Source: Candidatus Omnitrophota bacterium
GTDB taxonomy: Bacteria > Omnitrophota > Gorgyraeia > Zapsychrales > JANLHA01
Direction of reading: 5' to 3'
Length of the DNA: 32,000 bases
Assembly: GCA_963662715.1 (NCBI GenBank)
Contig: OY759724.1
Location: 600,001-632,000, forward strand
The position numbers and the translations under genes are program-made. The notes beneath the pieces were generated by a model, which did not search any database, was not told where the DNA came from, and worked only from the letters and a program-made list of their open reading frames with translations. Numbering within the stretch: the first letter of the stretch is position 1; every line of letters starts with the position of its first letter. Of this stretch, positions 3,654 to 21,295 are shown one piece after another.

Positions 3654-3782
3654 TTATCGGGATACCCCGGGGGGGTTAGAAGGCTTCATTTCAATACGTA
3701 CACGCGGCAAACATTCAGAAAATTTTGTTTGTAAAAATTCAAGAAGTTTTTCCCTAACCTCACAGCGTAATTTCCACGCCGT
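3654..3782 (-). repeat. direct-repeat partner of 1092-1220 (3' end of the intact MscS gene)
   Basis: See pseudogene 1092..1220. Weaker similarity extends to about 3650/1088 (cctttatcgggataccccgg versus cctttaccatgatgaccccgg). Confidence 0.7.
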
Positions 3783-4703
3783 AGGAGAATCTGCAGCGCT
3801 CATCAAGGCGCGCAATTCAATGACTCGTTCCTTTGCATCGGTAACCTGTAAAACATTAACCTTCTTATCCCAATACTGGCTTTCGCCAAGTATCCGTGTC
3901 AACTCGGCGCGCACGTCTTTCACGCCAATAGTGTAATCAGCATAAATAAACACACTTCCCAGAATATCGGCTGAAGTACGTGTCCAATTCTGAAACGGTT
4001 TTTCAAGTAAATATGATATGGGAATTACCAAACGCCTTAAATCCCAAATGCGCACCACGACGAAAGTAAGGGTAATTTCCTCGATCCAGCCCCATTCATT
4101 CTCGATAATGACCACATCACCCAACCGGATTGGTTGAGCGATGGCTATCTGAATACCGGCGATGAGATTCCCCAGTGTCTTCTGCGCGGCAAAACCAATA
4201 ACTATTCCCATTATTCCTGCCGAAGCCAAAATGCTTACCCCGATTTGCCTGACTTCTGCAAAACTCATCAAAATAAAAGAAACAGTTAACAAAACTATAA
4301 CCACGCCGATAATGTTTGCGATTAGACGTATTTGTGTATGCATGCCGCGGGCATGCACATTGTCCGGAGCATTAATATCATAATGGTTCAAAAGCGCATC
4401 GCGAATAATGCAAACAATCTTTACGATGACCCAACCCAACAACGCAATAAGCAGGATTTGAATAAAACGGCTAATAAAGCCTCCCACCTGTTCAGGTAAC
4501 CGCAAGAAAGGAATAACCACCGAGACACACAAAACTGGCATCAAAAATCGCAACGGCTTTTTAAGCAGCCCCAAGTTGACATTAAGCAATCTTACGGAAA
4601 CAGTACCCCTTCGTTTAATTAAGGCTGCGGCAAGAAAATAAAGCATCCATCCGATGGCAAAGCTAGAAGCTATTAAAATACCAGAAAAAAGATACTCACT
4701 CAT
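3654..4703 (-). CDS. MscS-family mechanosensitive ion channel
   Basis: 349 aa. N-terminal TM helices followed by the MscS beta-domain signature GNLIAGIQIAIAQPIRLGDVVIIENEWGWIEEITLTFVVVRIWDLRRLVIPISYL. SD GGAGAGG upstream. Confidence 0.9.
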   Translation of the reverse strand: MSEYLFSGILIASSFAIGWMLYFLAAALIKRRGTVSVRLLNVNLGLLKKPLRFLMPVLCVSVVIPFLRLPEQVGGFISRFIQILLIALLGWVIVKIVCIIRDALLNHYDINAPDNVHARGMHTQIRLIANIIGVVIVLLTVSFILMSFAEVRQIGVSILASAGIMGIVIGFAAQKTLGNLIAGIQIAIAQPIRLGDVVIIENEWGWIEEITLTFVVVRIWDLRRLVIPISYLLEKPFQNWTRTSADILGSVFIYADYTIGVKDVRAELTRILGESQYWDKKVNVLQVTDAKERVIELRALMSAADSPTAWKLRCEVREKLLEFLQTKFSECLPRVRIEMKPSNPPGVSR

Positions 4704-4748
4704 AATTTTAAACCTCTCCTAACAAACTTCGATGCCCAATGAGCACAG

Positions 4749-4886
4749 TTACATTTTTTTCACAGATGAAACAAACGCAAAAACGGCTATGCCGATTATC
4801 AATGCGATACCGATGATTATCACCTGAAAAATCAATGGCTTTAGAAATTTAGCGCCTGGTTTCAATGAATTATTCTTATCTTCCAT
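4749..4886 (-). CDS. 45-aa single-TM small protein
   Basis: Below the track cut-off. MEDKNNSLKPGAKFLKPLIFQVIIIGIALIIGIAVFAFVSSVKKM. AGAGG lies 8 nt upstream of ATG 4886. It fills the gap between two minus-strand genes. Confidence 0.45.
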   Translation of the reverse strand: MEDKNNSLKPGAKFLKPLIFQVIIIGIALIIGIAVFAFVSSVKKM

Positions 4887-4919
4887 GTTTCCAACCTCTA
4901 TCCTTCAGCATTTGCTTTA

Positions 4920-5849
4920 TTACAATTTATCGACTATTCCGTACAAAACCCCTCCGGCTATATCAGGCTTTGGAAAGAGATATTTGCGCGCGGAAATTGT
5001 TATCTCGGTCTTGTTATCCGATCCATTTCTGATTTGAATCGCTACCATAGCACCTTGTATGTTCGCTTTAATAGCACCGTTTTCCGCATCTTCTTTAGTC
5101 AATTTTCCCATGCGTTTTACTGACTCAAGGCTTACATCATACACGTGTTGAAAACCGGCATCCGTGGTTTGCTGCACGCTATCCTTGGCTAAAAATGTTG
5201 CCGCGATGCCAACCGGCAAGGCCGCCACGCCAGTTAACATGGCAACGCCGTATATCTTGGCACCTCTTATCCCCGCAGCCTTTACCGGCTCTGCAAGGAT
5301 CAGTACCGCCAGCTGTTCTGCGCTGGTAATATCCTTATAGCTTTTATGAATATTCACATCCTGGACTCGCACGGCCGGCTCCGTGCCGTTTGAGTAATCC
5401 TTGTAAACGATTCTTCCAATTCCCAGGGTTAAGAGATCGATTTGCATCGGCATAGGCTTAGACGGCTCTGATGTCTGCGCCACCTTTAACGAATCTACGT
5501 TTAGTTCTCCTTCTTTATTCTTCGTAAGCCCCATCTCATCTAACTCAACCTCGAGAAATACCAAATGTAATTTTTGTTTAAATAAAGCGGCGCGGTCATA
5601 GACAACGTTTATTTTTGAACAAGAGACAAGTATGCCTTCTGGGAACCCGCTCGGGTTATATATTTTGAGCCCGGATATATGGATAGATGATTTTAAAATA
5701 CTAAATGAAAAGCTGTCCATATGAACAGGTGTCCCGATGACAGTGACGGCGGCCCTTGTCACCACGGATTTCACAATCTGATTCTTGAAAATTGCGATAC
5801 ACACCAGGAAAAAAACAACTATCCCTAATACGATAAATAATTTTTTCAT
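4920..5849 (-). CDS. membrane protein: AsmA/DUF748-like N-terminal region fused to a DUF3568-like C-terminal domain
   Basis: N-terminal TM anchor, then a beta-rich VIGTPVHMDSFSFSILKSSIHISGLKIYNPSGFP pattern. There is an internal TM segment. The C-terminus (..AIKANIQGAMVAIQIRNGSDNKTEITISARKY) parallels lipoprotein 6094..6480. Confidence 0.65.
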   Translation of the reverse strand: MKKLFIVLGIVVFFLVCIAIFKNQIVKSVVTRAAVTVIGTPVHMDSFSFSILKSSIHISGLKIYNPSGFPEGILVSCSKINVVYDRAALFKQKLHLVFLEVELDEMGLTKNKEGELNVDSLKVAQTSEPSKPMPMQIDLLTLGIGRIVYKDYSNGTEPAVRVQDVNIHKSYKDITSAEQLAVLILAEPVKAAGIRGAKIYGVAMLTGVAALPVGIAATFLAKDSVQQTTDAGFQHVYDVSLESVKRMGKLTKEDAENGAIKANIQGAMVAIQIRNGSDNKTEITISARKYLFPKPDIAGGVLYGIVDKL

Positions 5850-5887
5850 AGGTCGCTCCCTCAGGCGAAAACAGCCCTGTCAAACTG

Positions 5888-6052
5888 TTACTTCTTACTC
5901 ATTAAAAAATACGCTGCCATGCCAATAACAGGCAAAAAGATTATCAAAACAATCCACAATGTCTTTTTGCCAGTGTCCATGGAACTTTTTAGAGCATCAA
6001 CAATAGCGATAATGTCTAAAACCAACACTAAAAGTCCTAATATCCCAGCCAT
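5888..6052 (-). CDS. PLD-nuclease N-terminal (PLDc_N) family small membrane protein
   Basis: Below the track cut-off. MAGILGLLVLVLDIIAIVDALKSSMDTGKKTLWIVLIIFLPVIGMAAYFLMSKK is the typical two-helix PLDc_N pattern. AGAGGAG lies 6 nt upstream of ATG 6052. Confidence 0.7.
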   Translation of the reverse strand: MAGILGLLVLVLDIIAIVDALKSSMDTGKKTLWIVLIIFLPVIGMAAYFLMSKK

Positions 6053-6093
6053 GAGTTCTCCTCTATCTCATTTTTTTAATCCAAGTTTATGCA

Positions 6094-6480
6094 TCATTTT
6101 AATTTCTTGGATATTTTTGCCAGTATATCCTTGGCAAACTGGACTCTGGGTGTGGCATATTTTCTGGCTGAAACCGTAATCTCGACCGTTTTGTCTGTTT
6201 GCTTGACGATATGGATAGCCACATTATTGTCTTCTGATTCTGACTTAATCCACCCCGTCGTCTCATCGGCCATATCAATTGTTCCCACCATGGCCTTGGC
6301 GACATCAAGGCTGGCTTTATAAGCTTTTTCGTAGGAAGAATCAAATTCTGCTTTGACGCTGTCCGCGCTTACTGTATATCCGATCGCGCCTCCGGCCAAA
6401 AGCGCAAAACAACCGGATAAAAGTGGCACTGCCAAAATTGACGCAACCACAATTACACCTATTCCCGTTTTTTTAATCAT
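6094..6480 (-). CDS. DUF3568-like lipoprotein
   Basis: Track ORF 6094..6636 trimmed to ATG 6480, which follows GGGAGGAG. Lipobox LLSGC. The trim removes the overlap with 6563..7141. Confidence 0.75.
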   Translation of the reverse strand: MIKKTGIGVIVVASILAVPLLSGCFALLAGGAIGYTVSADSVKAEFDSSYEKAYKASLDVAKAMVGTIDMADETTGWIKSESEDNNVAIHIVKQTDKTVEITVSARKYATPRVQFAKDILAKISKKLK

Positions 6481-6562
6481 TTTATTCTCCTCCCTAATCC
6501 AGAAACCTTCGCCAGAATAGCATTTCAATGACGTTTTTCCGGCGAAGATCCCTGTCTTACTA

Positions 6563-7141
6563 TTACTTTTCCTTGCTCTTTGGAAAAGGCTCCTTAACGA
6601 TAACCTTGATTCCGTCAATCGTTCCTGTTGCCGCATTCTTTACTTTATCCCCGGCCTCGGCGCTGATCTCATAGGCTGCTTTAATAGCTCCCGTAGCAGC
6701 CGCAGAGACTGCTTTTTCAGCATCAACGCCTGTATCTTTTGCCGAATGGATAACGCCTTTCAACAAACCTTTAGTTGCGGCTACAACATCACCACCCGCA
6801 TTAAAGGTGGTTTTTATAATCTTGCCGGCTAAAGCCCCAATTGAAGTCAATGCTTCTTCTCCCATTGCTTTTGAGCCCTTTAATATTCCTATGACAAGGC
6901 CCTTAACGCCTTCTTCCAAATTCTTTCCGGTTTCAACGACCCCACTGATTGTTGAGCTGATAATATCCTGAGCGGCTTCAATCAATGCCGCGCCGGTTTT
7001 TCCTGTCTCTTTTACCAGGTTACTCACCATTCCGCTTATCGTATCAACGATGGCGTTGACAATATCCCCCGCGCCTGTGATCACACTGACGATACTGTCC
7101 TTTACTGATTCAACAATTCCTTTTTTTGTTTCTGTAGCCAT
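6563..7141 (-). CDS. low-complexity Ala/Gly/Lys/Thr/Val/Ile-rich protein with about four degenerate ~40-aa repeats
   Basis: 192 aa. Strong SD (AGGAGGAG) upstream of ATG 7141. No TM segment or signal peptide. Repeat units end in ..ETGK.G / ..KDTG. Confidence 0.7.
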   Translation of the reverse strand: MATETKKGIVESVKDSIVSVITGAGDIVNAIVDTISGMVSNLVKETGKTGAALIEAAQDIISSTISGVVETGKNLEEGVKGLVIGILKGSKAMGEEALTSIGALAGKIIKTTFNAGGDVVAATKGLLKGVIHSAKDTGVDAEKAVSAAATGAIKAAYEISAEAGDKVKNAATGTIDGIKVIVKEPFPKSKEK

Positions 7142-7236
7142 GATACTCCTCCTTTATTTTTTATGACTCTGTCCTGATTTACCTTAAATCATCCAGCGGA
7201 AATCAGGGCTGTGCAAATTACCTCTCGCTGATTTAT

Positions 7237-7261
7237 GGAAAATTTGCCCGCGGGGGGCAAA
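7237..7261 (-). terminator. Rho-independent terminator candidate
   Basis: Minus strand reads TTTGCCC-CCCGC-GGGCAAA followed by TTTTCC, 34 nt after the GlsB-family stop. Confidence 0.5.
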
Positions 7262-7294
7262 CATTTCCCTTCGCTTCTTACATGCGGCCTAACG

Positions 7295-7558
7295 CTATGC
7301 GTGCCTTACAACAAAGCGTGTCAGGCCCACTAAAACCACTGCGCCAGCAAGGGCCACTAAAAATGAACCTACTGAACTGCTGGTATATAGCCCCATCACT
7401 CCAGCAATCCAGCCGCCAAGCATAGCTCCGACAATCCCGATCACGATGTCTGGGATAATACCGAAGCCTCGCCCCTGAATAATAAGCCCTGCCAACCACC
7501 CGATCACCCCACCGGTAAAGAGAAATACTACCCAATACCATAATGTATTCTGATCCAT
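7295..7558 (-). CDS. GlsB/YeaQ/YmgE-family stress membrane protein
   Basis: Track ORF trimmed to ATG 7558, which follows AAGGAGGG. MDQNTLWYWVVFLFTGGVIGWLAGLIIQGRGFGIIPDIVIGIVGAMLGGWIAG is the typical family pattern. Confidence 0.85.
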   Translation of the reverse strand: MDQNTLWYWVVFLFTGGVIGWLAGLIIQGRGFGIIPDIVIGIVGAMLGGWIAGVMGLYTSSSVGSFLVALAGAVVLVGLTRFVVRHA

Positions 7559-7664
7559 GATTCTACCCTCCTTGTCTGCCAGCCGATTAGGTCCCCTTGC
7601 CGTTAGGCTCCCTTTGGGAGGAAACAATCAGACTGTTTTTTACTTACGTTTGTTAATGATGAAG

Positions 7665-8435
7665 CTATTTCTTTGTCAAAGAATCATTAACGGTCATGTT
7701 ATTAATCACGCTTGTCACACCATTGACATCGTTGGCAACTTTAGCGGCCATGTCTTTTGCGGCTGCGCTACTGGCTTTGCCACTTAAAGTAACCACGCCA
7801 TTATTTGTCGCAACCCCTGTCTTAAAAAAACTGGTCGAGTGATGAGTCAATAGTGCCATCTTGACCTGGGCAGTGATAGACGCGTCATCGATTTTTTCAC
7901 CCATAGTCTGTTTCGGTTCATTTGAAACTTTGGCTATGGTCATTTCGTTCTTTACATCTTTAACACCTTTGATGTCTTTAGCGTATTCACCGGCCAAATC
8001 CTTTTGAGCCTGGTTCCCTGCTTCGCCGCGTAATGTTACGATTCCATCGGTAACAAATACCTGGGTGTTAATACCACTCACATGCCTGTTGTAAAGAAGA
8101 GAATATTTCACCTGCATGCTGATCCATCCGTCAGACTCTTCAGCCGGGCCTTTTAATTCCAGCTGATTGTCTACTTTTTTGACCCCAGGCAGGTTTGCAA
8201 CAGTCTCTTGAGCCAATGATTTGTGAGATTCTTCACTGACAGTTCCCGTCAATGTGACAACGCCATCCATGGACTTGGTTTTAATTGCATCGTCCTTAAG
8301 ATACGTTCTATAGACGTAGGAGTTCTTCGCGGATGATTCGATGTTTTGATCCATCTCAGAGGCGAGTGCAGATGCGCTAGTCAATAAGACTGCGGCCGTA
8401 ACAGTAATTAGTATTTTCGAGTAATTATTGTTCAT
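7665..8435 (-). CDS. periplasmic three-BON-domain protein (OsmY-like)
   Basis: Signal peptide ..ASALASE. Three BON repeats (GVVTLTGTV.., GIVTLRGEA.., GVVTLSGKA..), each followed by a ..GVK.V.N.. segment. Confidence 0.9.
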   Translation of the reverse strand: MNNNYSKILITVTAAVLLTSASALASEMDQNIESSAKNSYVYRTYLKDDAIKTKSMDGVVTLTGTVSEESHKSLAQETVANLPGVKKVDNQLELKGPAEESDGWISMQVKYSLLYNRHVSGINTQVFVTDGIVTLRGEAGNQAQKDLAGEYAKDIKGVKDVKNEMTIAKVSNEPKQTMGEKIDDASITAQVKMALLTHHSTSFFKTGVATNNGVVTLSGKASSAAAKDMAAKVANDVNGVTSVINNMTVNDSLTKK

Positions 8436-12003: not shown

Positions 12004-12504
12004 TTAAATATATCTTCCTTCAAACTCTTCCATATATTCCCTAAATCTAGTTAACTGCAACCGTTCTTCTCCTTGTCTCACAATATCAAGAAGTATTCGA
12101 AGGTGAAAATATCTTAAAGTTTCGGGATCCTCCTTGTTTTTCTTCAGAAAGTCTTTAATTGAGTCGCAGAGATTAAGAGTCTTTAGAATTCGTGCGATAT
12201 ATGACCAATCTTCCCCCGTTATTTTTGAAAGGCCCCTCACACTGTTTACAGCATGGGTTTCTTTCAATCTAACGTAATATTCTGCCTTATCTAACGGGAA
12301 TCGTTCTAATCGTTTTAAAAAAGCCTGATGTCTTTTTAGGCTCTTACTCTCAATAGTCTCAATATCAGCTAAATCTTCTGGACGTAAACCTACACAGAAT
12401 CTCTGCCGGGCATTTCTGATGATAGTGTAGAACGGAAGCTCAAAAGCATACGTCCTTGGCATAACCTCAGCATATTTCTGGATATATGCCGTAAATCTCG
12501 CCAT
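12004..12504 (-). CDS. hypothetical protein with ParB-like HTH-looking segment
   Basis: Track ORF 12004..12630 trimmed to ATG 12504 because its first 42 codons read through tRNA-His. The segment SVRGLSKITGEDWSYIARILKTLNLCDSIKDFL resembles ParB/KorB HTH. AT-rich. SD is weak. Confidence 0.5.
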   Translation of the reverse strand: MARFTAYIQKYAEVMPRTYAFELPFYTIIRNARQRFCVGLRPEDLADIETIESKSLKRHQAFLKRLERFPLDKAEYYVRLKETHAVNSVRGLSKITGEDWSYIARILKTLNLCDSIKDFLKKNKEDPETLRYFHLRILLDIVRQGEERLQLTRFREYMEEFEGRYI

Positions 12505-12587
12505 TTCAGAGGGATTAACCTCTTTACATGAAAAACCCTCATGCTCTTGTGGCTCGCAAGAGCCTCGGTTCGCATGAGGGTAATATA

Positions 12588-12665
12588 TGGGGTGGCTGAG
12601 GGGATTCGAACCCCCGACCTTCTGAACCACAATCAGATGCTCTAACCAACTGAGCTACAGCCACC
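12588..12665 (-). tRNA. tRNA-His (anticodon GTG)
   Basis: GGTGGCTGTAGCTCAGTTGGTTAGAGCATCTGATTGTGGTTCAGAAGGTCGGGGGTTCGAATCCCCTCAGCCACCCCA. The cloverleaf folds by hand. Anticodon loop is TTGTGGT. It has the extra 5' G(-1) opposite C73 typical of bacterial tRNA-His. CCA is encoded. Confidence 0.95.
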
Positions 12666-12792: not shown

Positions 12793-13764
12793 TTATTCCC
12801 CTGCTTTCAAAACATTTTTGTCTTCAAGCGTGCCGCTGAAATTTATTTTATCAAAACGGATATCATTCATAAGCGTCTTAATCTCAAAGTCAATAAGGAA
12901 CTCCAGCCCCGAAGACTGTATGGCTCCCATGACCAGATCCCCCAGGCGGAAATCATCAACGGGCTTGTGCTGAATTCTCCCGTTCAACAGCCCCAAGTTC
13001 AACTTGCCTTTGATGCTCATATGATTATCAACAGACGCAATTTGCGCAGAGATCCCTTCCGCCTCCGCCTCCTCAAAAACCTTGGCCGAGGCATTCATGC
13101 TTAAAGACACAAAATCAACCCAGCCCCGCAAGGCCACGGGATGATCCGAGAACGGGATACGGGAACCGAAGATCTGCCCCTGCAGAAAGAACAGGATCTT
13201 CTCGGGCTCCGGCGGGTAGGGGACATTTTCCGCCTGCAGCTCCAAATCTTTAATTTCAAATTGAAAAGGGCGCTCGGCATCCAGCCGCTGATAAAAAAAA
13301 TGTCCGTTTTGAATATGAAGATTTCTTATTAAAATGCGTAATGGCGCCACAGCAGGCAACGAAATGGCGGATGCAGATTCCGCTGCGCCGCTCTGCCCCC
13401 CGGAATCTGCTGCCTGACTGTTTCCCTTTACCATCCTTTTGGAATCAGACACGATATAGTAAATGACAGTATCTTGAATCCGGACATCGGAAAGCAAAAT
13501 ACGCGGAGATAAGGAGAATAAAAATCTCAGGTTAAAAGTAACGTGTTTTGCGGAGAAAACTCCGGGGATATGGAGTTGATTAACCTGTAACTGCAGGGGC
13601 CACTTTAAGGCAACGCTTTCCACAGCAACAGGTCGATGAAAAGTCTGCGTTAAGCGCTGTTCGGCAACCTCTTTTCCTTTGTAATTGACAAAGAAAAATA
13701 AACCCGCCCCTATTAGCAGAAAAAGGACAAGAAAAATAGCCAATAATTTTTCATAAAATTTCAT
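12793..13764 (-). CDS. membrane-anchored AsmA/DUF748-like protein
   Basis: 323 aa. N-terminal TM anchor LLAIFLVLFLLIGAGLFFFV, then a beta-rich region resembling the N-terminus of 4920..5849. No clear SD. Confidence 0.6.
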   Translation of the reverse strand: MKFYEKLLAIFLVLFLLIGAGLFFFVNYKGKEVAEQRLTQTFHRPVAVESVALKWPLQLQVNQLHIPGVFSAKHVTFNLRFLFSLSPRILLSDVRIQDTVIYYIVSDSKRMVKGNSQAADSGGQSGAAESASAISLPAVAPLRILIRNLHIQNGHFFYQRLDAERPFQFEIKDLELQAENVPYPPEPEKILFFLQGQIFGSRIPFSDHPVALRGWVDFVSLSMNASAKVFEEAEAEGISAQIASVDNHMSIKGKLNLGLLNGRIQHKPVDDFRLGDLVMGAIQSSGLEFLIDFEIKTLMNDIRFDKINFSGTLEDKNVLKAGE

Positions 13765-13799
13765 GGCTAAATAACAGTCTATTGATGCTGATAAATAAA

Positions 13800-13873
13800 C
13801 GACCCCGCCTGGATTCGAACCAGGGACCCTCTGCTTAGAAGGCAGATGCTCTATCCAACTGAGCTACGGGGCC
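13800..13873 (-). tRNA. tRNA-Arg (anticodon TCT)
   Basis: GGCCCCGTAGCTCAGTTGGATAGAGCATCTGCCTTCTAAGCAGAGGGTCCCTGGTTCGAATCCAGGCGGGGTCG. The cloverleaf folds by hand (one G-U pair in the acceptor stem). Anticodon loop is CTTCTAA. No encoded CCA. Confidence 0.95.
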
Positions 13874-14033
13874 AGGAAGCAATATCTACCTTCGATTAAG
13901 AATATCTTATACAGCTATCAAAAGGAAGATAGCTTGATAAACAACGTATAACGTCAATTGATTGATTTATTATACCAGCGATTTAAAAATTAGCAAGATG
14001 GTTCAAAAAGGATATGAAGCGACAACGGCCGTG

Positions 14034-14060
14034 AGGCAAAAGACGTTTATCTGAACGTCT
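14034..14060 (-). terminator. weak terminator-like hairpin
   Basis: Minus strand reads AGACGTT-CAGATA-AACGTCT followed by TTTG. It overlaps the stop codon of 14059..14514. Confidence 0.3.
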
Positions 14061-14514
14061 ACCGGGAAAGGCCTGGGAAAGTTAAATCAAACAATCTCCA
14101 AAGGATAGACCGCAAAATCCACAGTTCAACTCCGGAGACCTTCTCAATCGACAGGGCCGGGCTGGTTAATTCAATAATAACGTCAGAACGCTTCAAACCT
14201 TTCGCCCGGAATGTGATGTTGGCGCTAACGGATATTTCCCCTCCGCTGCCGGATTCGGCAAAATCATTCTGGCCGGCAGCGGTGACCTGCCGCCTGTTGT
14301 CCGGAAGGGAATCCTTCTCCTGCTCCTCTTCTCCTGATTTCAGAAGGATATCCATAGGGGCCATACGCCCCAGATTATTAACATATGACTCCAGTTGGGG
14401 CAACTGCTGGCTGAGTTTTGCATTGATGACGTCAAAAGCCCATCTCTTGGGGACATTTGTGTTGATGACAAGCCGGAATTTTCGCATCTTCTTATTCATG
14501 GCCTTATTTCGCAT
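14059..14514 (-). CDS. hypothetical protein
   Basis: 151-aa track ORF with no recognisable motif and no good SD at any of the three N-terminal ATGs. It is kept because it is co-directional, fills the gap and ends at a hairpin. Confidence 0.35.
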   Translation of the reverse strand: MRNKAMNKKMRKFRLVINTNVPKRWAFDVINAKLSQQLPQLESYVNNLGRMAPMDILLKSGEEEQEKDSLPDNRRQVTAAGQNDFAESGSGGEISVSANITFRAKGLKRSDVIIELTSPALSIEKVSGVELWILRSILWRLFDLTFPGLSR

Positions 14515-14685
14515 AATAAATTAATGGTCAAAATTATGATTTTTTTTATTCACCTGTCTTTTAGTCAGGATTACATCAAATGGCTTACAGGGAAAATGAA
14601 AAGTCCCCGGCATCCCCTTTTCCCCAAATCCTCTCCCCCATAAAACACTCTGACAAGGCCGTGATGTCTTATTTTTCCAAAAAGG

Positions 14686-14735
14686 CGGAAAAAGGGACCC
14701 CCTCTCATCAATTTTGCTTGATAAGAGGGGGTCCC
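14686..14735 (-). terminator. Rho-independent terminator
   Basis: Minus strand has a 12-bp perfect stem GGGACCCCCTCT ... AGAGGGGGTCCC followed by TTTTTCC, 25 nt after the stop of 14760..15242. Confidence 0.8.
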
Positions 14736-14759
14736 TGAAAACGGCTCTTCTTAAGGATA

Positions 14760-15242
14760 TTACAGCATGCCTTCAACGACTTCCAAAAACTTCTTTACCA
14801 CGGCTTTTTTCATAGCCCGCCGGGCATGTATTTTTTCCTTCAGCAAAGCAAACTGGTCCTGCGTAAGAGTTTCTTTAATGGCAACGACATTATCCACTTT
14901 AGCCGTGAGCAGCATGCCTCTTAAAACATTAATTTCCTGAATAATGGCTTTGACGTCCTGAGGATCAGACGCAGGCTTCTCGATCTCTTCTCTTAACAAA
15001 AGAAGTTTTGTCTTCAACTGCTCCAGAACAAGCTTGTTCTGTTCCCAGGCCTGCCGGCTTTGGGTTTTAATTTGTTCCTTCTGTTCATCACTGAGGTTTA
15101 GTTCCCTGTCCAGATGTTCGATGATTTTATCCTGAATCTTTTCGACAAAAAGATTCTGATCATCAAAGGACCTGGCCTGCGATGTGATGAAGAACAGCAA
15201 TAACAAACTTACCCCCGCACATAAAATCCATTTCTTTTTCAT
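14760..15242 (-). CDS. periplasmic Spy/CpxP-like LTXXQ protein
   Basis: Signal peptide MKKKWILCAGVSLLLLFFITSQA. LSDEQ and LTQDQ motifs. SD AAGGAGG. Last gene of the ECF module. Confidence 0.8.
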   Translation of the reverse strand: MKKKWILCAGVSLLLLFFITSQARSFDDQNLFVEKIQDKIIEHLDRELNLSDEQKEQIKTQSRQAWEQNKLVLEQLKTKLLLLREEIEKPASDPQDVKAIIQEINVLRGMLLTAKVDNVVAIKETLTQDQFALLKEKIHARRAMKKAVVKKFLEVVEGML

Positions 15243-15263
15243 GTTTTTTCCTCCTTTGCTTAT

Positions 15264-15290
15264 TTAGACGCCACAACAAAAAAAAGTTCC
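15264..15290 (-). promoter_or_regulatory. ECF-type promoter GGAACTT-N15-TCTAA
   Basis: Minus strand reads GGGAACTTTTTTTTGTTGTGGCGTCTAAATAAGCAAAGGAGGAAAAAACATG. It shares GGAACTT and GTCTAAATAA with the element upstream of the sigma gene. Confidence 0.55.
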
Positions 15291-15291
15291 C

Positions 15292-15789
15292 TTAAATCCA
15301 AAGACTTCCCCACCAGGCTCCCGGAGACAATTCCCCCAAGTAGTAAAAAAGAGGGTCATCCCAGGAAATGAGCGCCAAGAAGTCCACCTGTTCCGTTAAG
15401 TATTTATTAACAGTACGCACCTGCTGCTGATACCGAACAACTCCGGCCATGATCATAAGGCATAAAACGAAAACCCAAAGTGGGTTCCACTGAGGCGTCC
15501 ACGGCCGAAGGGACGGCTTCCAGCATACCCAGAAAAATCTTTGCGGGGATTTTGCGGGCCGGGCCTCGATATCCTTCTCGATACTCGACCATAAAGATGC
15601 CGGCGGAGAGCTCCGACGCTCTTCCTTCAATAAAGGGCCGACCTTTTCTTTGACTTCCTGCGCCAGTTCCCGGCATTGCTCGCATTGAGCAAGATGTTTT
15701 TCCACCGCCAGCGTCCGTTTGCTGTCGAGTTGCTCGTCCAGATAATCACTGAGAATGAAGTCCTGAACTTTTTCACATTTCATCATCAA
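15292..15789 (-). CDS. ZAS-type (zf-HC2) membrane anti-sigma factor
   Basis: HLAQCEQC (HxxxCxxC) near the N-terminus and one TM helix (WVFVLCLMIMAGVV). It overlaps the sigma gene stop. The exact ATG among MMM is uncertain. Confidence 0.8.
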   Translation of the reverse strand: MMMKCEKVQDFILSDYLDEQLDSKRTLAVEKHLAQCEQCRELAQEVKEKVGPLLKEERRSSPPASLWSSIEKDIEARPAKSPQRFFWVCWKPSLRPWTPQWNPLWVFVLCLMIMAGVVRYQQQVRTVNKYLTEQVDFLALISWDDPLFYYLGELSPGAWWGSLWI

Positions 15790-16333
15790 TCCCTTCCTTT
15801 CTCATAGCTTCCAAAATTTTCTCGCGGGCCCGCTTGATTCTCGTTCTGACAGTGTTCAACTTTATACTCAAAACTTCCGATATTTCCTGATAGTTCAATC
15901 CTTCCATTTCCCTTAATAATATGCAGGCACGCTGCTCGGGAGACAGCCCCCGCAGCACCGCATCCCTTATACGGGACTTATCGTTCCAGGATACCTCGTC
16001 TGAAAAAATACCGTGCGAATCTCTTTTCTGAACCCAATGCCACTCACCGCGTATTTTCTGTTCTTTCAAACGTCTTCGGTAATGATTGATCGCTGTGTTG
16101 ATCGTGATGCGGTAAACCCAGGTTTTAAAAGAGGACCGGTAGTTAAACCTTCCCAGAGAACCGTATATTTTCAGGAATACTTCCTGAGCCACTTCTTTGG
16201 CGTCTTCCGGGTTTTCGTTCATACGCAGCGCCAAATGATAGACATAGGCCGAACTGGCTTCATAAATCATCCTGAATGAAGTCCGGTCTCCTGCCGCTGC
16301 CTGTTTAATAATGTCTGCCGGGATGGATTTCAT
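15773..16333 (-). CDS. ECF (sigma-70 group 4) RNA polymerase sigma factor
   Basis: 186 aa. Region 2 (..VAQEVFLKIYGSLGRFNYRSSFKTWVYRITINTAINHYRR) and region 4 HTH (LREMEGLNYQEISEVLSIKLNTVRTRIKRAREKI). Confidence 0.9.
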   Translation of the reverse strand: MKSIPADIIKQAAAGDRTSFRMIYEASSAYVYHLALRMNENPEDAKEVAQEVFLKIYGSLGRFNYRSSFKTWVYRITINTAINHYRRRLKEQKIRGEWHWVQKRDSHGIFSDEVSWNDKSRIRDAVLRGLSPEQRACILLREMEGLNYQEISEVLSIKLNTVRTRIKRAREKILEAMRKEGIDDEM

Positions 16334-16345
16334 GGCCTCATTTAT

Positions 16346-16373
16346 TTAGACACGGGAACAAGGAAAAAGTTCC
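16346..16373 (-). promoter_or_regulatory. ECF-type (autoregulatory) promoter GGAACTT-N16-TCTAA
   Basis: Minus strand reads T9-CGGAACTTTTTCCTTGTTCCCGTGTCTAAATAAATGAGGCCATG. The very short leader is a caveat. Confidence 0.5.
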
Positions 16374-16551
16374 GAAAAAAAAAGAACCGCTTCCCTTATT
16401 ATACCCGATTTACAAGTGATCTTCCTTCTGGGGGGCCATCCAGAAGGGAAAAATCCGGATATAGGAAACGGCCCTTTGGGATGTATAAACTGCAGCCAGT
16501 TCTCACCACAAGTTTAATGCCACTTACACTGCTTACTCCCTCCTCTCCTGC

Positions 16552-16587
16552 AAAAAAAAACGACCTTTCCTGAATACGGAAAAGGTC
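16552..16587 (-). terminator. Rho-independent terminator (riboswitch expression platform)
   Basis: Minus strand reads GACCTTTTCC-GTATTCA-GGAAAGGTC followed by G and T9. Confidence 0.75.
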
Positions 16588-16604
16588 TGTTCTCCCAAAA
16601 AAAT

Positions 16605-16689
16605 CTTGTTTGGCAGCCAGGCTATCCGTATTTCAGGATCCTATGACTTTGCGTCCCCACCTTACGATGGGTTTGCCTTTTCATCAAGC
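16605..16689 (-). promoter_or_regulatory. c-di-GMP-I (GEMM-I) riboswitch aptamer
   Basis: Minus strand reads GCUUGAUGAAAAGGCAAACCCAUCGUAAGGUGGGGACGCAAAGUCAUAGGAUCCUGAAAUACGGAUAGCCUGGCUGCCAAACAAG. The GGCAAACC-(helix with GNRA loop GUAA)-GGGACGCAAAG core parallels the V. cholerae Vc2 aptamer as I recall it. CUUG...CAAG can close P1. Confidence 0.7.
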
Positions 16690-16708
16690 ATAATCTCTAT
16701 CTACCCGA

Positions 16709-16737
16709 AGTATAAAACATCCTGCGGCAAGAGTCAA
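16709..16737 (-). promoter_or_regulatory. sigma70-type promoter TTGACT-N17-TATACT
   Basis: The -35 is at 16732-16737 and the -10 at 16709-16714. It lies 42 nt downstream of the GT-C stop and about 15 nt upstream of the aptamer. Confidence 0.55.
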
Positions 16738-16778
16738 ATTAATTATTGTAGAAATATAAAGCTTTGGGATAAAACAAT

Positions 16779-18455
16779 TTATTGCCCATGAAAGCCGAAA
16801 TCATACAGATAAACCGCAGCCCCGTCCTTTTCAAGACTCTGCAGTCTTTGGGCGTTCTTATCCAGAATATATAAAATATAATCCTGCGCGACCGGGTTCA
16901 TGCTGGAAAAGAAAAACCACACTCTTTTCTGGTCAGAAATATGAAGCGGAGAATTGACAAATATCCTGCGAGGGCGGCCAATCATCTGGTTACTCAGCAA
17001 CTCCCGGAAGTATCCTTCCTGATTATAGACGTATACAACCTGCCGGAACAAGGCATAAGGCCGGCCCTGTTCTGTCAACAAATGGTCGAGGAACTGCCCC
17101 GCCACATATCCCAGCTTTATCCCTCCCTCCTTTCCAGTGGAAACCGGCAGAGAAGGAGACATAAAACGTTCACAGCCAAAGCGCTGGCTGTAGTACCAGA
17201 AAGGGAACTGGGCCTCGCTGTTGAGGACGAAAGCATCTCCCGTTTGCGCGTGGCTGGCCAGAAATTCAATGACGGCCCTGTTATCCTGGCGGTGATACCC
17301 GTGCAAAAACGACTTGAACGTCTGCGTCACGGAAGGATACAGCATAAAACCTATGACAAGCCAGCTTAAAAAATGATACGGGGGTCTTACAAAAGAACAA
17401 ATCCATACGCCCCCTTCAGCTAACATCAGCAGGATGAGAGGCACCAGAAACAACACCATCCGCCCCCCGAAAGGATACTTTTGTAAAGCCGTTGCGGTAA
17501 GGACAAAGACCAACGGAAGAAAGCACAGCCAAAAAATGTTTTTATCCTTACGAGATAAGGTCATGCCTCCCAGCAAGGCTATTATGAAGGCGGCCAAGGA
17601 ATGGCCCTGGCCGACCGGATCTATAAAAAACGACGACAGCATGTTTTTCAGCCAGCGGATACTTTCCGGAGAACCGACGGGTTGCGGCATAAACGAATTC
17701 TTCCACATATTCAGCAATAAAGGATCTGCGGCCATAATGGACAGGGAACAGCGGTATAAAGCGTAAAAGCTGATCAGCCACAGAAAAACAGCCGTGATGA
17801 GGTGTTTGAGCCGGGAATAATCCCGGGCAAGCATGATCGATATCAAAGAGGCTGTTGCCGCAGCCGCCAGGACGAATACCGCGGAATTGGAGAGCCACAG
17901 AGATATGGCTCCGGTGATTCCCAAGACAAGCGTTTTCTTCCGGGTGAAAGGACGGGACAGCCCCCAAAAGGCGGATAAAAACAGTCCCGTTGTTATTAAA
18001 ACATCAAGAGAATAGGGCTTGAGTTCTGCGGCATAGTAAACAAAAGATGGATTGAACGCAAATAAAGCGAGCGCTAATGTTGAAACAGCCGGCGAAAAAA
18101 ACCTTTTCGTGACAATATAAAACAATATAATGGAAAGAATACTGGCGCAAAAGGGCCCCAACCTTAAAACCCATTCCTGGTTTCCTAACCAAACCACCAT
18201 GACCTTTTCAAACACAGAAAAGATATAGGGTTGTTTAGCAAAACTTTCCGCCAGGGGAATCTGCTGCAACACCTCAGACCAGGAACGGTTGACAATAGAT
18301 ACGGCTGTAACCGTCTCATCCAGCCAAAAAGACCTGTTCTGAAGATAATGCTTCAGGCGGAATCCGGCCCCCAGCACAATGAGTAAAAGCTGAAAAGGCC
18401 GGGACAATATCCCCTGCCGTATGCGCTCTGTCATATGATAAAATTTCACAATCAC
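16779..18455 (-). CDS. GT-C fold glycosyltransferase (ArnT / PMT_2, GT39/GT83-like)
   Basis: 558 aa, polytopic. The N-terminal ..NRSFWLDETVTA.. (DE motif in the first periplasmic loop) is typical of polyprenyl-phosphate-sugar-dependent transferases. Start is uncertain (GTG 18455 or ATG 18434). Confidence 0.8.
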   Translation of the reverse strand: MIVKFYHMTERIRQGILSRPFQLLLIVLGAGFRLKHYLQNRSFWLDETVTAVSIVNRSWSEVLQQIPLAESFAKQPYIFSVFEKVMVVWLGNQEWVLRLGPFCASILSIILFYIVTKRFFSPAVSTLALALFAFNPSFVYYAAELKPYSLDVLITTGLFLSAFWGLSRPFTRKKTLVLGITGAISLWLSNSAVFVLAAAATASLISIMLARDYSRLKHLITAVFLWLISFYALYRCSLSIMAADPLLLNMWKNSFMPQPVGSPESIRWLKNMLSSFFIDPVGQGHSLAAFIIALLGGMTLSRKDKNIFWLCFLPLVFVLTATALQKYPFGGRMVLFLVPLILLMLAEGGVWICSFVRPPYHFLSWLVIGFMLYPSVTQTFKSFLHGYHRQDNRAVIEFLASHAQTGDAFVLNSEAQFPFWYYSQRFGCERFMSPSLPVSTGKEGGIKLGYVAGQFLDHLLTEQGRPYALFRQVVYVYNQEGYFRELLSNQMIGRPRRIFVNSPLHISDQKRVWFFFSSMNPVAQDYILYILDKNAQRLQSLEKDGAAVYLYDFGFHGQ

Positions 18456-18490
18456 CCAGGATAAAAGTACCGGCTCATGGTCACGGAGGC

Positions 18491-18697
18491 TCAGGGTTCA
18501 GGAACAGGCTCATGAGCTTTCCGGCCATAAACTTTTTCATAAGCCTGACAAAAAGGACAAATCTTGTTTTCAATCGTCTTCACAAACCAAAAAATAAATC
18601 CGCGTTGTTTGTCCCGGGCCTTGCGGCACACAGGGCATTCCACGCATTTCTGGGCCATCTGACGGTCCCGCTCTGTTACGGCATTCTCATGCGGCAT
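18491..18697 (-). CDS. small Cys-rich (CxxCxxC ... CxxC) protein, putative zinc ribbon
   Basis: 68 aa. Strong SD AAAGGAGGA lies 5 nt upstream of the ATG. Motifs CVECPVC and CPFC flank a hydrophobic GFIFWFV stretch. Confidence 0.55.
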   Translation of the reverse strand: MPHENAVTERDRQMAQKCVECPVCRKARDKQRGFIFWFVKTIENKICPFCQAYEKVYGRKAHEPVPEP

Positions 18698-18855: not shown

Positions 18856-19905
18856 CTAAAAGTATTCAATAATTTTCAATGATAAATATTGGGAGAATAT
18901 TTCATTCCCTGCATCATTCAAATGATTTGCATCCATAAAATATTTTTCTTTATAACTCTCAAGTATCGGCTGGATCACTTTCAAATTGTCATTTGAATTT
19001 AAAATATCTTTTACGGCTTGCTTATATATATTGTTCATGCCATTCTCTTCCCTCTGCTCAAAAAGTGTTTCAGGCAAAGGAGAATTGAACATGAAAACAT
19101 ATATTTTATGCTCTTTGGCTAAATCAATAAATTTATTAAACCAATAAAGGGCATCATGATTAATGACGACTTGCTGTTTATAAAATATTGACTCCTTTAT
19201 ATCGTCTTCGGTTATTATATTGTCTTTGCCAAAAACAATCCCGCCATTATGTTCCTTCAAAACAGTATCAAGCATTTGAGGGCCCGAAAACTCCTGCCAA
19301 GGATTCATCAAAAGAATTTTAATTTCTTTACGGAAGGTCAGCAGGTAAGAAAATCTTTCTATCTCCGGGATGATAATTTCTCCGGAGCATCCCGGCGGCA
19401 CAACACTCATCATATCTGCCAAATCAAATAATTCACAAAATCTATGAACATAAAGATATTTTCCATACATATCCTGACAGATATCCCATCCTTTGAATAA
19501 ACTTTCAGGCATTGTCGAAATAAAAACGATCTTCGGTTTTTCATGTTGCTGCAAATAGTTATATAAAAATAAATAGTACGTACGCATATCTGCATACGGT
19601 GTGGAGAAATTATAAATATCGACTCTTTTATTCATCTCCTTTGACAAGGCATCAGAAATAATCTTTGCGTTAATACCCAAAGCACGGCTGTCCCCAAGGA
19701 TGATACCGCTAAACTTTAATTTGTTATCACCGTCAATAATGGCTTTTTTCTTATAAATAATCATGTCCGCAAATCCCAATATTTTATCAGGGATGTTTCT
19801 AACAAAAGATTCCGTTAACGCCAGCATTAATAAACACAGGAAAAAGGCATACGGTATTTTCTTAGAATTGAAAATAGATAAATTCTTTTGCACCGGTAAC
19901 TCCAA
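18856..19905 (-). CDS. SGNH/GDSL-like (DUF1574-type) protein, probable periplasmic O-acyl transfer partner of MBOAT
   Basis: N-terminal TM anchor. GDSR (block I) and DANHLN (block V DxxH). TTG start 19905 overlaps the MBOAT gene by 44 nt; alternative GTG at 19893. Confidence 0.7.
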   Translation of the reverse strand: MELPVQKNLSIFNSKKIPYAFFLCLLMLALTESFVRNIPDKILGFADMIIYKKKAIIDGDNKLKFSGIILGDSRALGINAKIISDALSKEMNKRVDIYNFSTPYADMRTYYLFLYNYLQQHEKPKIVFISTMPESLFKGWDICQDMYGKYLYVHRFCELFDLADMMSVVPPGCSGEIIIPEIERFSYLLTFRKEIKILLMNPWQEFSGPQMLDTVLKEHNGGIVFGKDNIITEDDIKESIFYKQQVVINHDALYWFNKFIDLAKEHKIYVFMFNSPLPETLFEQREENGMNNIYKQAVKDILNSNDNLKVIQPILESYKEKYFMDANHLNDAGNEIFSQYLSLKIIEYF

Positions 19906-21295
19906 ATATTATTAAACATATAAAACACACATAATAAAAAATGGCTTTGATAATTACGTTACTTTTGTAAACAATCATTAAATCTTTCTTTGAATACTGC
20001 CAGACCTGAACTGCCAAAAGAATAAATATATATTTCAAAACACCCCAAAACTGCATTCCGAGCTCTTTCAAAGGCACATACTCCCACTGAAAACATAACG
20101 CATAGAACATATTGGAAAGCTGCGGGAATGATTGGGCGCGGAATATCAGCCATCCGATACATGTTATATGAAAAAAGATTATTATTTTGAGAGCAAAACA
20201 CATTTTTTTCGCAAAAACACTTTCAAAAAAACCTGTCTTAATTCCTATCGATTCTATCAGTCGTTGAAACATTAAAAGTAAGCCGTGATAAGCGCCCCAC
20301 GCAATAAATGTCCAGGAAGCCCCGTGCCACAGCCCTCCCAGCAACATTGTAATAGCTAAATTTCGATGCATTCTATTCGCGCCTTTTTTATTCCCGCCTA
20401 ATGGGATATATAAATAATCCCGAAGCCAGGTTGATAAGCTGATATGCCATCTGCGCCAGAATTCCCTAGGATTAGTTGAAAAATATGGCAGGTTAAAATT
20501 CACCATAATTTCAAAACCCATACATTTGCTTAACCCTCTTGCGATATTGGAATATCCGGCAAAATCACAAAAAATTTGAAATGAGAATGCATATAAAACA
20601 AATAATATTTCAAAAGCATTGTCAAAATTCTTTACTTTTCCAAAAACAGTATCCACGTATAAAGCCAAATTATCGGCGACAAAAACCTTCTGGAATAATC
20701 CCCAGAAAATCAAGTAACACCCTTCATAAAATTTCGTTAATGTGACCTGTCTTGACTGTACGACTTGAGGAAGAAGATGTTTGGCTCTTTCGATTGGGCC
20801 TGCCACGAGTTGCGGGAAATAAGCGACAAACAACGCAAAATCTAAAAATCCTCTCGTGGGCTTAAGTTCCTTTCTATAAATATCAATTGTATAGCTCATC
20901 GTCTGGAATGTATAAAAAGAAATACCAACGGGCAAAGTAATTGCTAAGGAAAATTCGGGGATCTGGAATCCAAACGAATTCATCAAATGCTGCAGGTTTG
21001 ACGTAAAGAAATTACAGTATTTGAAAATTCCTAAAACACCCAAATTACCTAAAACGCTGAGAAATAGAAATCGTTTCCGAGTCTTTATGTCTTCAGTTGA
21101 ATCTATTTTCAGCCCGCAGAAATAATCCAACACTGTTGAGATGACTATTAAAGACAAGAACCGATAATCCCAACTGCCATAAAATATATAGCTGGCAATT
21201 AGCAGCATCCTATTCTGCCATTTGTGATTGAGCACGAGATAAAGAGAATATACTATGGTGAAGAATATCGCAAATTGTAATGAATTAAACAGCAT
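19862..21295 (-). CDS. MBOAT-family membrane O-acyltransferase (AlgI/DltB-like)
   Basis: 477 aa, polytopic. FWRRWHISLSTWLRDYLYIPLGGN and LLGGLWHGASW contain the conserved MBOAT His. Confidence 0.9.
   Translation of the reverse strand: MLFNSLQFAIFFTIVYSLYLVLNHKWQNRMLLIASYIFYGSWDYRFLSLIVISTVLDYFCGLKIDSTEDIKTRKRFLFLSVLGNLGVLGIFKYCNFFTSNLQHLMNSFGFQIPEFSLAITLPVGISFYTFQTMSYTIDIYRKELKPTRGFLDFALFVAYFPQLVAGPIERAKHLLPQVVQSRQVTLTKFYEGCYLIFWGLFQKVFVADNLALYVDTVFGKVKNFDNAFEILFVLYAFSFQIFCDFAGYSNIARGLSKCMGFEIMVNFNLPYFSTNPREFWRRWHISLSTWLRDYLYIPLGGNKKGANRMHRNLAITMLLGGLWHGASWTFIAWGAYHGLLLMFQRLIESIGIKTGFFESVFAKKMCFALKIIIFFHITCIGWLIFRAQSFPQLSNMFYALCFQWEYVPLKELGMQFWGVLKYIFILLAVQVWQYSKKDLMIVYKSNVIIKAIFYYVCFICLIIFGVTGAKEFIYFQF

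Follow-up and report, generated by a model that had tools for sequence, protein, structure and literature searches.

The 32,000-nucleotide (nt) stretch of DNA from a Candidatus Omnitrophota bacterium that was analysed here (contig OY759724.1, positions 600,001 to 632,000; hereafter the window) carries on its minus strand, at 16737-16552, a sigma-70-type promoter followed by a class I cyclic di-GMP (c-di-GMP-I, GEMM-I) aptamer and an intrinsic terminator (T1), an identification that is now confirmed. The next gene on this strand encodes an extracytoplasmic function (ECF) sigma factor, and the anatomy between the two is unusual, with a conserved long terminator hairpin (T2) abutting an ECF promoter. 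The interpretation favoured here, at a probability of about 0.55, is that the element is a canonical class I OFF riboswitch whose direct product is a long RNA and whose input to the sigma gene is at most attenuated. The initial annotation, made from the sequence letters without database searches, had recognised the riboswitch and proposed that it feeds transcription into the ECF sigma module. The riboswitch itself is composed of the following parts.

16709-16737, minus strand: sigma-70-type promoter TTGACT-N17-TATACT, with 10 of 12 matches and a 17-nt spacer.
16605-16688, minus strand: c-di-GMP-I (GEMM-I) aptamer of 84 nt, recognised by Rfam covariance models and 96% identical in two metagenomic contigs, L161 and L162.
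16588-16604, minus strand: variable linker between aptamer and T1, of 25-46% identity and varying length among the three loci.
16552-16587, minus strand: terminator T1, from terminator scan and folding, with a 9-bp stem and an 8-nt loop, then G and U9.

The whole window was scanned with Rfam at gathering thresholds (4227 families), which returned only two transfer RNA (tRNA) genes and one riboswitch match (16686-16608, minus strand). This match belongs to the c-di-GMP-I clan and, with E = 1.9e-12 for the 32-kb window against all these families, is far beyond chance. The aptamer sequence quoted in the initial annotation is indeed found on the minus strand and matches the same clan; the segment GAUGAAAAGG had been placed about 15 nt downstream of the promoter, a distance that holds when counted from the likely transcription start, whereas 23 nt separate it from the -10 hexamer. 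The aptamer has a three-helix architecture in which P1 is formed by CUUG/CAAG, the second helix carries a GUAA tetraloop and the third helix, P3, has a short hairpin. All these helices can be formed by standard base pairs, covariation being uninformative with near-invariant sequences. In parallel, the conserved C (in GGGACGC) and G (in the AG bulge of the third helix) of the inter-helix pair are both present, in GGGGACGC and GAUAGCC, respectively.

The ligand of the aptamer can be read from its aligned contacts. The covariance-model alignment places the equivalents of G20, A47 and C92 at 16677, 16650 and 16613, with the same bases in L161 and L162, and the G20-to-A47 spacing is 27 nt. G20, A47 and C92 are the canonical ligand contacts of the Vc2, Vc1 and Bc1 riboswitches (PMC4744006, PMC11218506), and the 27-nt spacing is also present in Vc2 and Bc1 (PMC11218506, PMC4744006). 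Since the contacts read G, A and C, the window aptamer is a standard c-di-GMP-I aptamer, neither of the GGC variant nor of the A20 variant that responds to cyclic GMP-AMP (cGAMP). In particular, the hallmark of GEMM-Ib (3'3'-cGAMP), an A at the G20 equivalent, is absent, with G at 16677, and the by-eye alignment of the initial annotation, which had put a G at this position and disfavoured cGAMP, is thus upheld.

A specificity variant with a ligand other than c-di-GMP, such as the GGC class, has nevertheless to be considered, as RF03167 (c-di-GMP-I-GGC) scores highest of the clan models on the window aptamer, with 61.7 bits (cut-off 59), and the same model is the best one, at 62.0 bits, for a second Omnitrophota riboswitch in locus L013. 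A second, lower-scoring clan model is also over its own cut-off in the window and is masked by RF03167 under the clan rule; this is presumably RF01051, judging from the scans of L161 and L162. Both of these aptamers score 58.8 bits with RF03167, just under the cut-off, so that RF01051, the model whose score the initial annotation had named as a possible refutation, is displayed instead, with 58.0 bits against a cut-off of 35, an excess of 23 bits by which the refutation fails. The middle letter of GGC, as reportedly defined by Weinberg et al. 2017, denotes a G that replaces A at the A47-equivalent position. The RF03167 consensus (G10, G37, C75) agrees with this meaning: its GCGAAG has G at model position 37, right after the closing C of the second helix, and this position is equivalent to Vc2 A47 because it follows the unpaired G of model position 10 by 27 nt. 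The window has GCAAAG, and position 37 is A, not G, in the window, L161, L162 and L013. RF03167 thus evidently draws these compact aptamers by their scaffold and not by the diagnostic base, and together with a G at position 20, where cGAMP-selective variants have A, this makes an altered specificity highly improbable.

The L013 element (6160-6460, plus strand) has an A at the A47 position and the order of a TTGACT-N17-TATATT promoter, aptamer, terminator, Shine-Dalgarno sequence and open reading frame (ORF). It follows a gene for an ShlB/FhaC-type outer-membrane transporter, 3.5 kb downstream of the orthologous sigma/anti-sigma/Spy operon, and the contig stops inside the riboswitch-regulated gene.

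The comparison with related loci indicates how the RNA element has been maintained. Homologues of the sigma factor put the window in or close to Candidatus Omnitrophota; the best genome and metagenome matches are only 40-52% identical, and a protein search led to L161 and L162 (55-59%), which are fully syntenic with the window. The shared order comprises genes for a response regulator, a 68-aa protein and a PMT_2-like protein of about 558 aa, the intergenic region, and then genes for the ECF sigma factor, a zf-HC2 protein, a Spy/CpxP-like protein and a protein of about 150 aa. Promoter, aptamer and terminator occur at the same position in both contigs. The neighbouring proteins are 32-59% identical to those of the window, with 74-79% for the upstream 68-aa protein; at the nucleotide level, identity is 96% for the aptamer and 56-62% for the coding DNA of the sigma and PMT_2-like genes, a difference that points to a strong purifying selection acting on this RNA. 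That the match arose by chance, or that the element is a decaying relic without present function, is next to negligible as an explanation, given the E-value and an aptamer kept at 96% where coding DNA is at about 60%; these conservation data effectively refute it.

The promoter was likewise preserved. TTGACT-N17-TATACT, which the initial annotation had read correctly on the minus strand, is the top-ranked promoter-like site within 14000-18500, and its hexamers are unchanged in the window, L161 and L162, where the intervening spacer differs and the segment is 76% identical to the window. Transcription would start near 16702.

The distribution of the element was evaluated with a covariance model built from the three aptamers (R1), run on the window and 166 loci, with a regular-expression scan and with an nhmmer search that used the whole intergenic region. 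By these methods, a GEMM-I element upstream of sigma is present only in the window, L161 and L162, that is, in 3/3 loci of the syntenic clade and in none of the 164 other orthologous loci fetched. The loci with the next-closest sigma factors (L163-L166, about 50% identity) gave no R1 match, and their intergenic regions measure 120-250 nt where the contig includes the upstream region.

Downstream of the aptamer, T1 reads GACCTTTTCCGTATTCAGGAAAGGTC-G-T9 at 16587-16552, with the hairpin GACCUUUUCC-GUAUUCA-GGAAAGGUC at 16587-16562, as the initial annotation had it. The 5' arm and loop of T1 can pair with the loop and 3' strand of P3, generating an antiterminator. In particular, UCCUGAAAUACGGA (P3 loop and 3' strand) pairs with UCCGUAUUCAGGA (T1) in the minimum-free-energy fold of the window leader, where the antiterminator fold has -44.7 kcal/mol against -38.0 kcal/mol for enforced aptamer helices plus T1, a difference of 6.7 kcal/mol. 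The complementarity noted by eye is thus real, and the competition between aptamer and terminator folds that had been deduced from it is seen by folding in the window, is weaker in L161, where a shorter equivalent pairing, GGAUAG (aptamer) with CUAUCC (T1), can form as long as the T1 3' arm has yet to be transcribed, and is absent from the predictions for L162. As the antiterminator uses P3 and the aptamer fold leaves T1 formed, ligand binding would favour T1, and the best reading is that of a transcriptional OFF switch, predicted mainly from one sequence.

The T1 stem is kept in L161 and L162 despite substitutions, at 78-81% identity to the window. Changes that had looked compensatory are in fact one-sided (U-G to C-G), with one A-C mismatch, so that the conservation of T1 amounts to structural retention and not to proven covariation.

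The space between T1 and the sigma gene is not empty and contains two further RNA segments.

16478-16551, minus strand: 5' part of the T1-T2 RNA, a purine-rich tract and a poorly conserved hairpin domain, 43-48% identical among the loci.
16375-16477, minus strand: terminator T2, a hairpin of about 100 nt and about 35 bp followed by U9, from the three-locus consensus fold and z-scores.

The T2 hairpin (16477-16381) has the apical loop AUGGCCCC and a G+C-rich base, AAAGGGCCGUUUCC:GGGAAGCGGUUCUUU, that runs into U9 (16383-16375), and it was recovered by the consensus fold of the three loci with a few both-sided changes at the base of the stem (UUCC:GGAA vs UUUU:AAAA). On the minus strand, T2 folds at -42.3 kcal/mol with z = -4.2 against shuffled sequences, the orthologues having z = -4.4 and -4.1, while the plus strand (z = -0.65) folds no better than shuffled sequence. 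This strand specificity identifies T2 as an RNA-level element on the riboswitch strand, and by every sequence criterion T2 is a second intrinsic terminator. Identity among the loci is 75-82%, loops included, with AUGGCCCC and AUCACUUGU near-invariant. T2 occurs once, and with a covariance model built for it (R2) it is found only in the three riboswitch-bearing loci. No Rfam family matches the T1-to-sigma spacer, T2 included, at E <= 1. T2 is conserved beyond the needs of a plain terminator.

The purine-rich tract lies directly after the T1 U-run, as GCAGGAGAGGAGGGAG in the window (16551-16536) and GCAGGGAGGAGGGCAG in L161 (about 4773-4790). It looks like a very strong Shine-Dalgarno sequence or like several clustered GGA motifs, and no start codon lies at usable distance. 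As a candidate antiterminator for T2, the tract has some by-eye complementarity to the upper 5' arm, a weak case that fold predictions do not favour.

The alignment of the three loci, read directly, gives no conserved ORF or pair of Shine-Dalgarno sequence and start codon in the T1-T2 RNA, in agreement with the initial annotation, which had seen no ORF after T1. Small ORFs of about 33-38 codons between T1 and T2 are broken in frame by 1-base indels and have no common start or Shine-Dalgarno sequence, and the 9-codon ORF of the T2 apical loop (window MAPQKEDHL, L161 MAPQREYHL) also has no Shine-Dalgarno sequence; none of them is taken as coding. Pairing of the T2 loop with the sigma translation start (AUGGCC:GGCCAU in the window) is not conserved in L161 and L162 and was discarded. 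T2 was also considered as a repeat or mobile element, which its single copy contradicts, and as a terminator for the plus strand, where the fold is at the level of shuffled sequence and no convergent gene is present.

The sigma operon that follows has signals of its own.

16346-16373, minus strand: ECF (sigma-E-type) promoter GGAACTT-N16-TCTAA, from direct reading and the motif in orthologous loci.
15773-16333, minus strand: ECF sigma factor gene, 186 aa (Pfam Sigma70_r2, Sigma70_r4_2 and Sigma70_ECF).
15292-15789, minus strand: zf-HC2 anti-sigma gene (Pfam zf-HC2), overlapping the sigma end by 17 nt.
14760-15242, minus strand: gene for a Spy/CpxP-like periplasmic protein (Metal_resist/LTXXQ), a weak Pfam match.

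GGAACTT-N16-TCTAA follows the T2 U-run immediately, so that T2 abuts the -35 element, and lies 39 nt before the sigma ATG. It corresponds to the promoter pattern of sigma-E and ECF factors, the P2 promoter of Escherichia coli rpoE having GGAACTT-N16-TCTAA. When the 150 nt preceding the orthologous sigma starts were screened for a loose form of the motif (GAAC-N16-20-TC[TA]A), it was present in 46/79 Omnitrophota loci and in none of 79 coding segments used as controls. The typical orthologous motif (loci L002-L075) is GGAACTTTT...TGTCTAA, about 45 nt upstream of the sigma start codon. The sigma/anti-sigma operon thus has its own family-wide promoter, presumably autoregulated, which in the syntenic clade T2 would shield from upstream transcription. 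The zf-HC2 anti-sigma gene is linked to sigma in 146/162 loci, and the Spy/CpxP-like orthologues at L013, L163 and L164 pass the Pfam threshold. Homologues align with the sigma factor from residue 1 of the 186-aa ORF.

The public annotation starts sigma at an internal Met (165 aa), which looks too short given these alignments. The leaders implied by the ECF motif are very short, with just 2 nt between the GAGG Shine-Dalgarno sequence of the window and the ATG.

These elements bear directly on the read-through into the ECF sigma/anti-sigma/Spy module that the initial annotation had proposed. The sigma ATG (16333) does lie 218 nt past the T1 U-run, on the same strand and with no ORF between; neither T2 (16477-16375) nor the ECF-type promoter (16373-16346) had been seen in this spacer. 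In a single transcription unit, neither a terminator nor a promoter would separate the expression platform from the ORF, and here both are found. As T2 and the ECF promoter intervene, the riboswitch is probably not a simple on/off switch for sigma.

A mechanism can be proposed in which the sigma-70-type promoter at 16737 starts an RNA near 16702. When ligand is absent, the P3 loop and 3' strand would pair with the T1 5' arm and polymerase would pass T1, while upon c-di-GMP binding the aptamer helices would form, T1 would fold and transcription would stop at about 150 nt. At low c-di-GMP, about 175 nt more RNA, comprising the purine tract and the T2 hairpin, would be made, with an end near 16375 and a total of about 330 nt, and this RNA is most likely the directly regulated product. 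Only polymerase escaping both terminators would reach the sigma gene; such escape from T2 could add a sigma-70-dependent basal expression of the sigma operon at low c-di-GMP, and the sigma/anti-sigma/Spy-like operon would be mainly driven by its own promoter. The sequence data show the family membership, the promoter and terminator anatomy, the conservation and synteny, the strand-specific T2 and the conserved ECF promoter, while the OFF polarity, the efficiencies of T1 and T2, the autoregulation of the ECF promoter and any function of the long RNA are what we infer in this scheme.

Several points weigh against it. It is unsatisfying that a conserved aptamer should lead to an RNA with no assigned function, and the 32-kb window shows no gene for c-di-GMP metabolism. 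In L161 the antiterminator is weak, and in L162, where it would need a G-U pair, T1 is the default fold. As L161 and L162 have identical aptamers, the three loci count as only two independent lineages, and covariation support is thin. Furthermore, basal expression of ECF operons commonly requires a housekeeping promoter, a role in which the promoter at 16737 could serve.

The last point leads to the model of the initial annotation, in which the sigma operon has the riboswitch as its leader, c-di-GMP gates sigma-70 read-through and T2 acts as a partial attenuator or a second checkpoint. This model and the one favoured here differ only in the leakiness of T2. That ECF operons often carry an extra housekeeping promoter is in its favour, as are the arrangement of the elements on one strand with no ORF between, kept in three genomes, and the co-occurrence of riboswitch and T2 only at this sigma locus. 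Precedents are Cd1, with a long 5' untranslated region (UTR), a second cis-acting element and a sigma gene in the operon (PMC5386303), and Bc1, a c-di-GMP riboswitch with two terminators (PMC11218506). T2, however, looks strong and constitutive: 7-9 U follow its G+C-rich base stem, and no conserved antiterminator was found for it. A phylum-wide conserved sigma promoter follows it directly, and 0/164 other fetched orthologous sigma loci have an upstream GEMM-I. The leader model is thus possible but doubtful. A separate and rather speculative suggestion, which we regard as unlikely, is that the T1-T2 RNA of about 175 nt, with its T2 hairpin, is itself the regulated output: a non-coding RNA under the control of c-di-GMP, produced at low c-di-GMP only and acting on the ECF module or on other targets; possible modes are that of a protein or RNA sponge, or transcription in cis just upstream of the ECF promoter. 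If true, this would be a route from second messenger via riboswitch and small RNA to an ECF sigma factor that has not been described before.

A different origin of the transcript would involve the gene upstream.

16779-18455, minus strand: gene for a membrane protein of 558 aa with a weak PMT_2 glycosyltransferase match (Pfam).

Transcripts of this gene could end at T1 or T2, making the element a 3'-UTR riboswitch through which c-di-GMP alters termination or stability of the mRNA. Indeed, no terminator-like site was found from the stop codon (16779) to the riboswitch promoter or on to the aptamer, the PMT_2-like gene is syntenic in exactly the three riboswitch loci, that is, outside the window in L161 and L162 only, and there is the precedent of Vc2, which governs how stable a small RNA upstream of it is (bioRxiv 10.1101/617340). 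The well-placed promoter with invariant hexamers directly before the aptamer argues against this origin, which would also leave the conservation of T2 unexplained, and it is accordingly improbable. The OFF riboswitch with the long RNA as its direct product thus remains the preferred reading.

The wider neighbourhood includes the two tRNA genes of the Rfam scan, both downstream of the sigma module.

12588-12664, minus strand: tRNA-His(GTG).
13799-13874, minus strand: tRNA-Arg(TCT).

Their positions are syntenic in L161 and L162, and a 208-aa ORF at 12004-12630 begins inside the tRNA-His gene, so that its true start must be further downstream. Envelope-related genes are present at 3654-8435 and 12793-13764 on the minus strand; they include two DUF748 paralogues (4920-5849 and 12793-13764), two DUF3568 proteins, a triple-BON-domain protein, an MscS channel and TrkAH, a set that fits an envelope or osmotic-stress neighbourhood around the ECF module. 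Between the response-regulator and 68-aa genes, 18856-21295 (minus strand) encodes an MBOAT (AlgI/DltB-like O-acyltransferase) and a DUF1574 protein, a pair that is absent there in L161 and L162 and looks like a lineage-specific insertion into a cell-envelope glycan cluster with carbamoyltransferase, two B12-radical-SAM, epimerase and GT2 genes further upstream.

Collectively, these data extend c-di-GMP-I riboswitches to the uncultivated phylum Omnitrophota, beside an ECF sigma module of the envelope-stress type. They also carry two lessons for annotation: a top Rfam model (RF03167) can mislabel canonical aptamers, for which the diagnostic nucleotide must be read, and the next downstream gene is not necessarily the regulated one, as a second terminator and an independent promoter stand in between here. 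Should the long RNA isoform prove functional, the unit would be one of the rare examples in which a second-messenger riboswitch controls a non-coding RNA.

Among known systems, a full-text literature search found no association of a c-di-GMP riboswitch with an ECF sigma factor, and the ECF context appears not to have been described before, the regulatory link to the ECF sigma being a proposal only. The novelty argument of the initial annotation is weakened by Cd1 of Clostridioides difficile, a class I OFF riboswitch upstream of the flgB operon, which includes sigD (PMC5386303). Cd1 has a housekeeping promoter, c-di-GMP-dependent termination at about 160 nt and 338 further nt of 5' UTR with a second cis-acting element (PMC5386303), and it is the closest described architecture to the window unit. 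The second element of Cd1 is an invertible DNA switch, while that of the window is a fixed terminator hairpin with a separate ECF promoter, and the Cd1 sigma is the flagellar sigma-D inside a long operon, not an ECF factor with an anti-sigma. In Bc1 of Bacillus thuringiensis, two Rho-independent terminators also stand in series after the aptamer, 28 bp apart; T1 responds to c-di-GMP, and T2, which overlaps the region where translation of mcpE starts, remains folded at any c-di-GMP level and is dominant in vivo (PMC11218506). The window terminators are about 175 nt apart, and their T2 is unusually long and sequence-conserved and is followed by a separate promoter. With Vc2 and Vc1 of Vibrio cholerae (RF01051), the window shares the aptamer architecture, the G20/A47/C92 contacts and a GNRA tetraloop on the second helix, and Vc2 is an OFF switch (PMC4744006; bioRxiv 10.1101/617340). 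It differs from them in its short third helix with a scaffold like that of the GGC model, its GUAA instead of GAAA tetraloop, its Rho-independent terminator as the platform with an antiterminator that uses the third-helix loop, and its Omnitrophota-like host. The RF03167 GGC aptamers have the same compact scaffold and differ by a G at the A47 position, where the window has A. The adenosylcobalamin (AdoCbl) riboswitches with EutX in Enterococcus or Rli55 in Listeria produce a long RNA that sequesters an ANTAR response regulator. The proposed window unit would resemble them in its ligand-dependent choice between a short and a long structured RNA with no direct ORF target.

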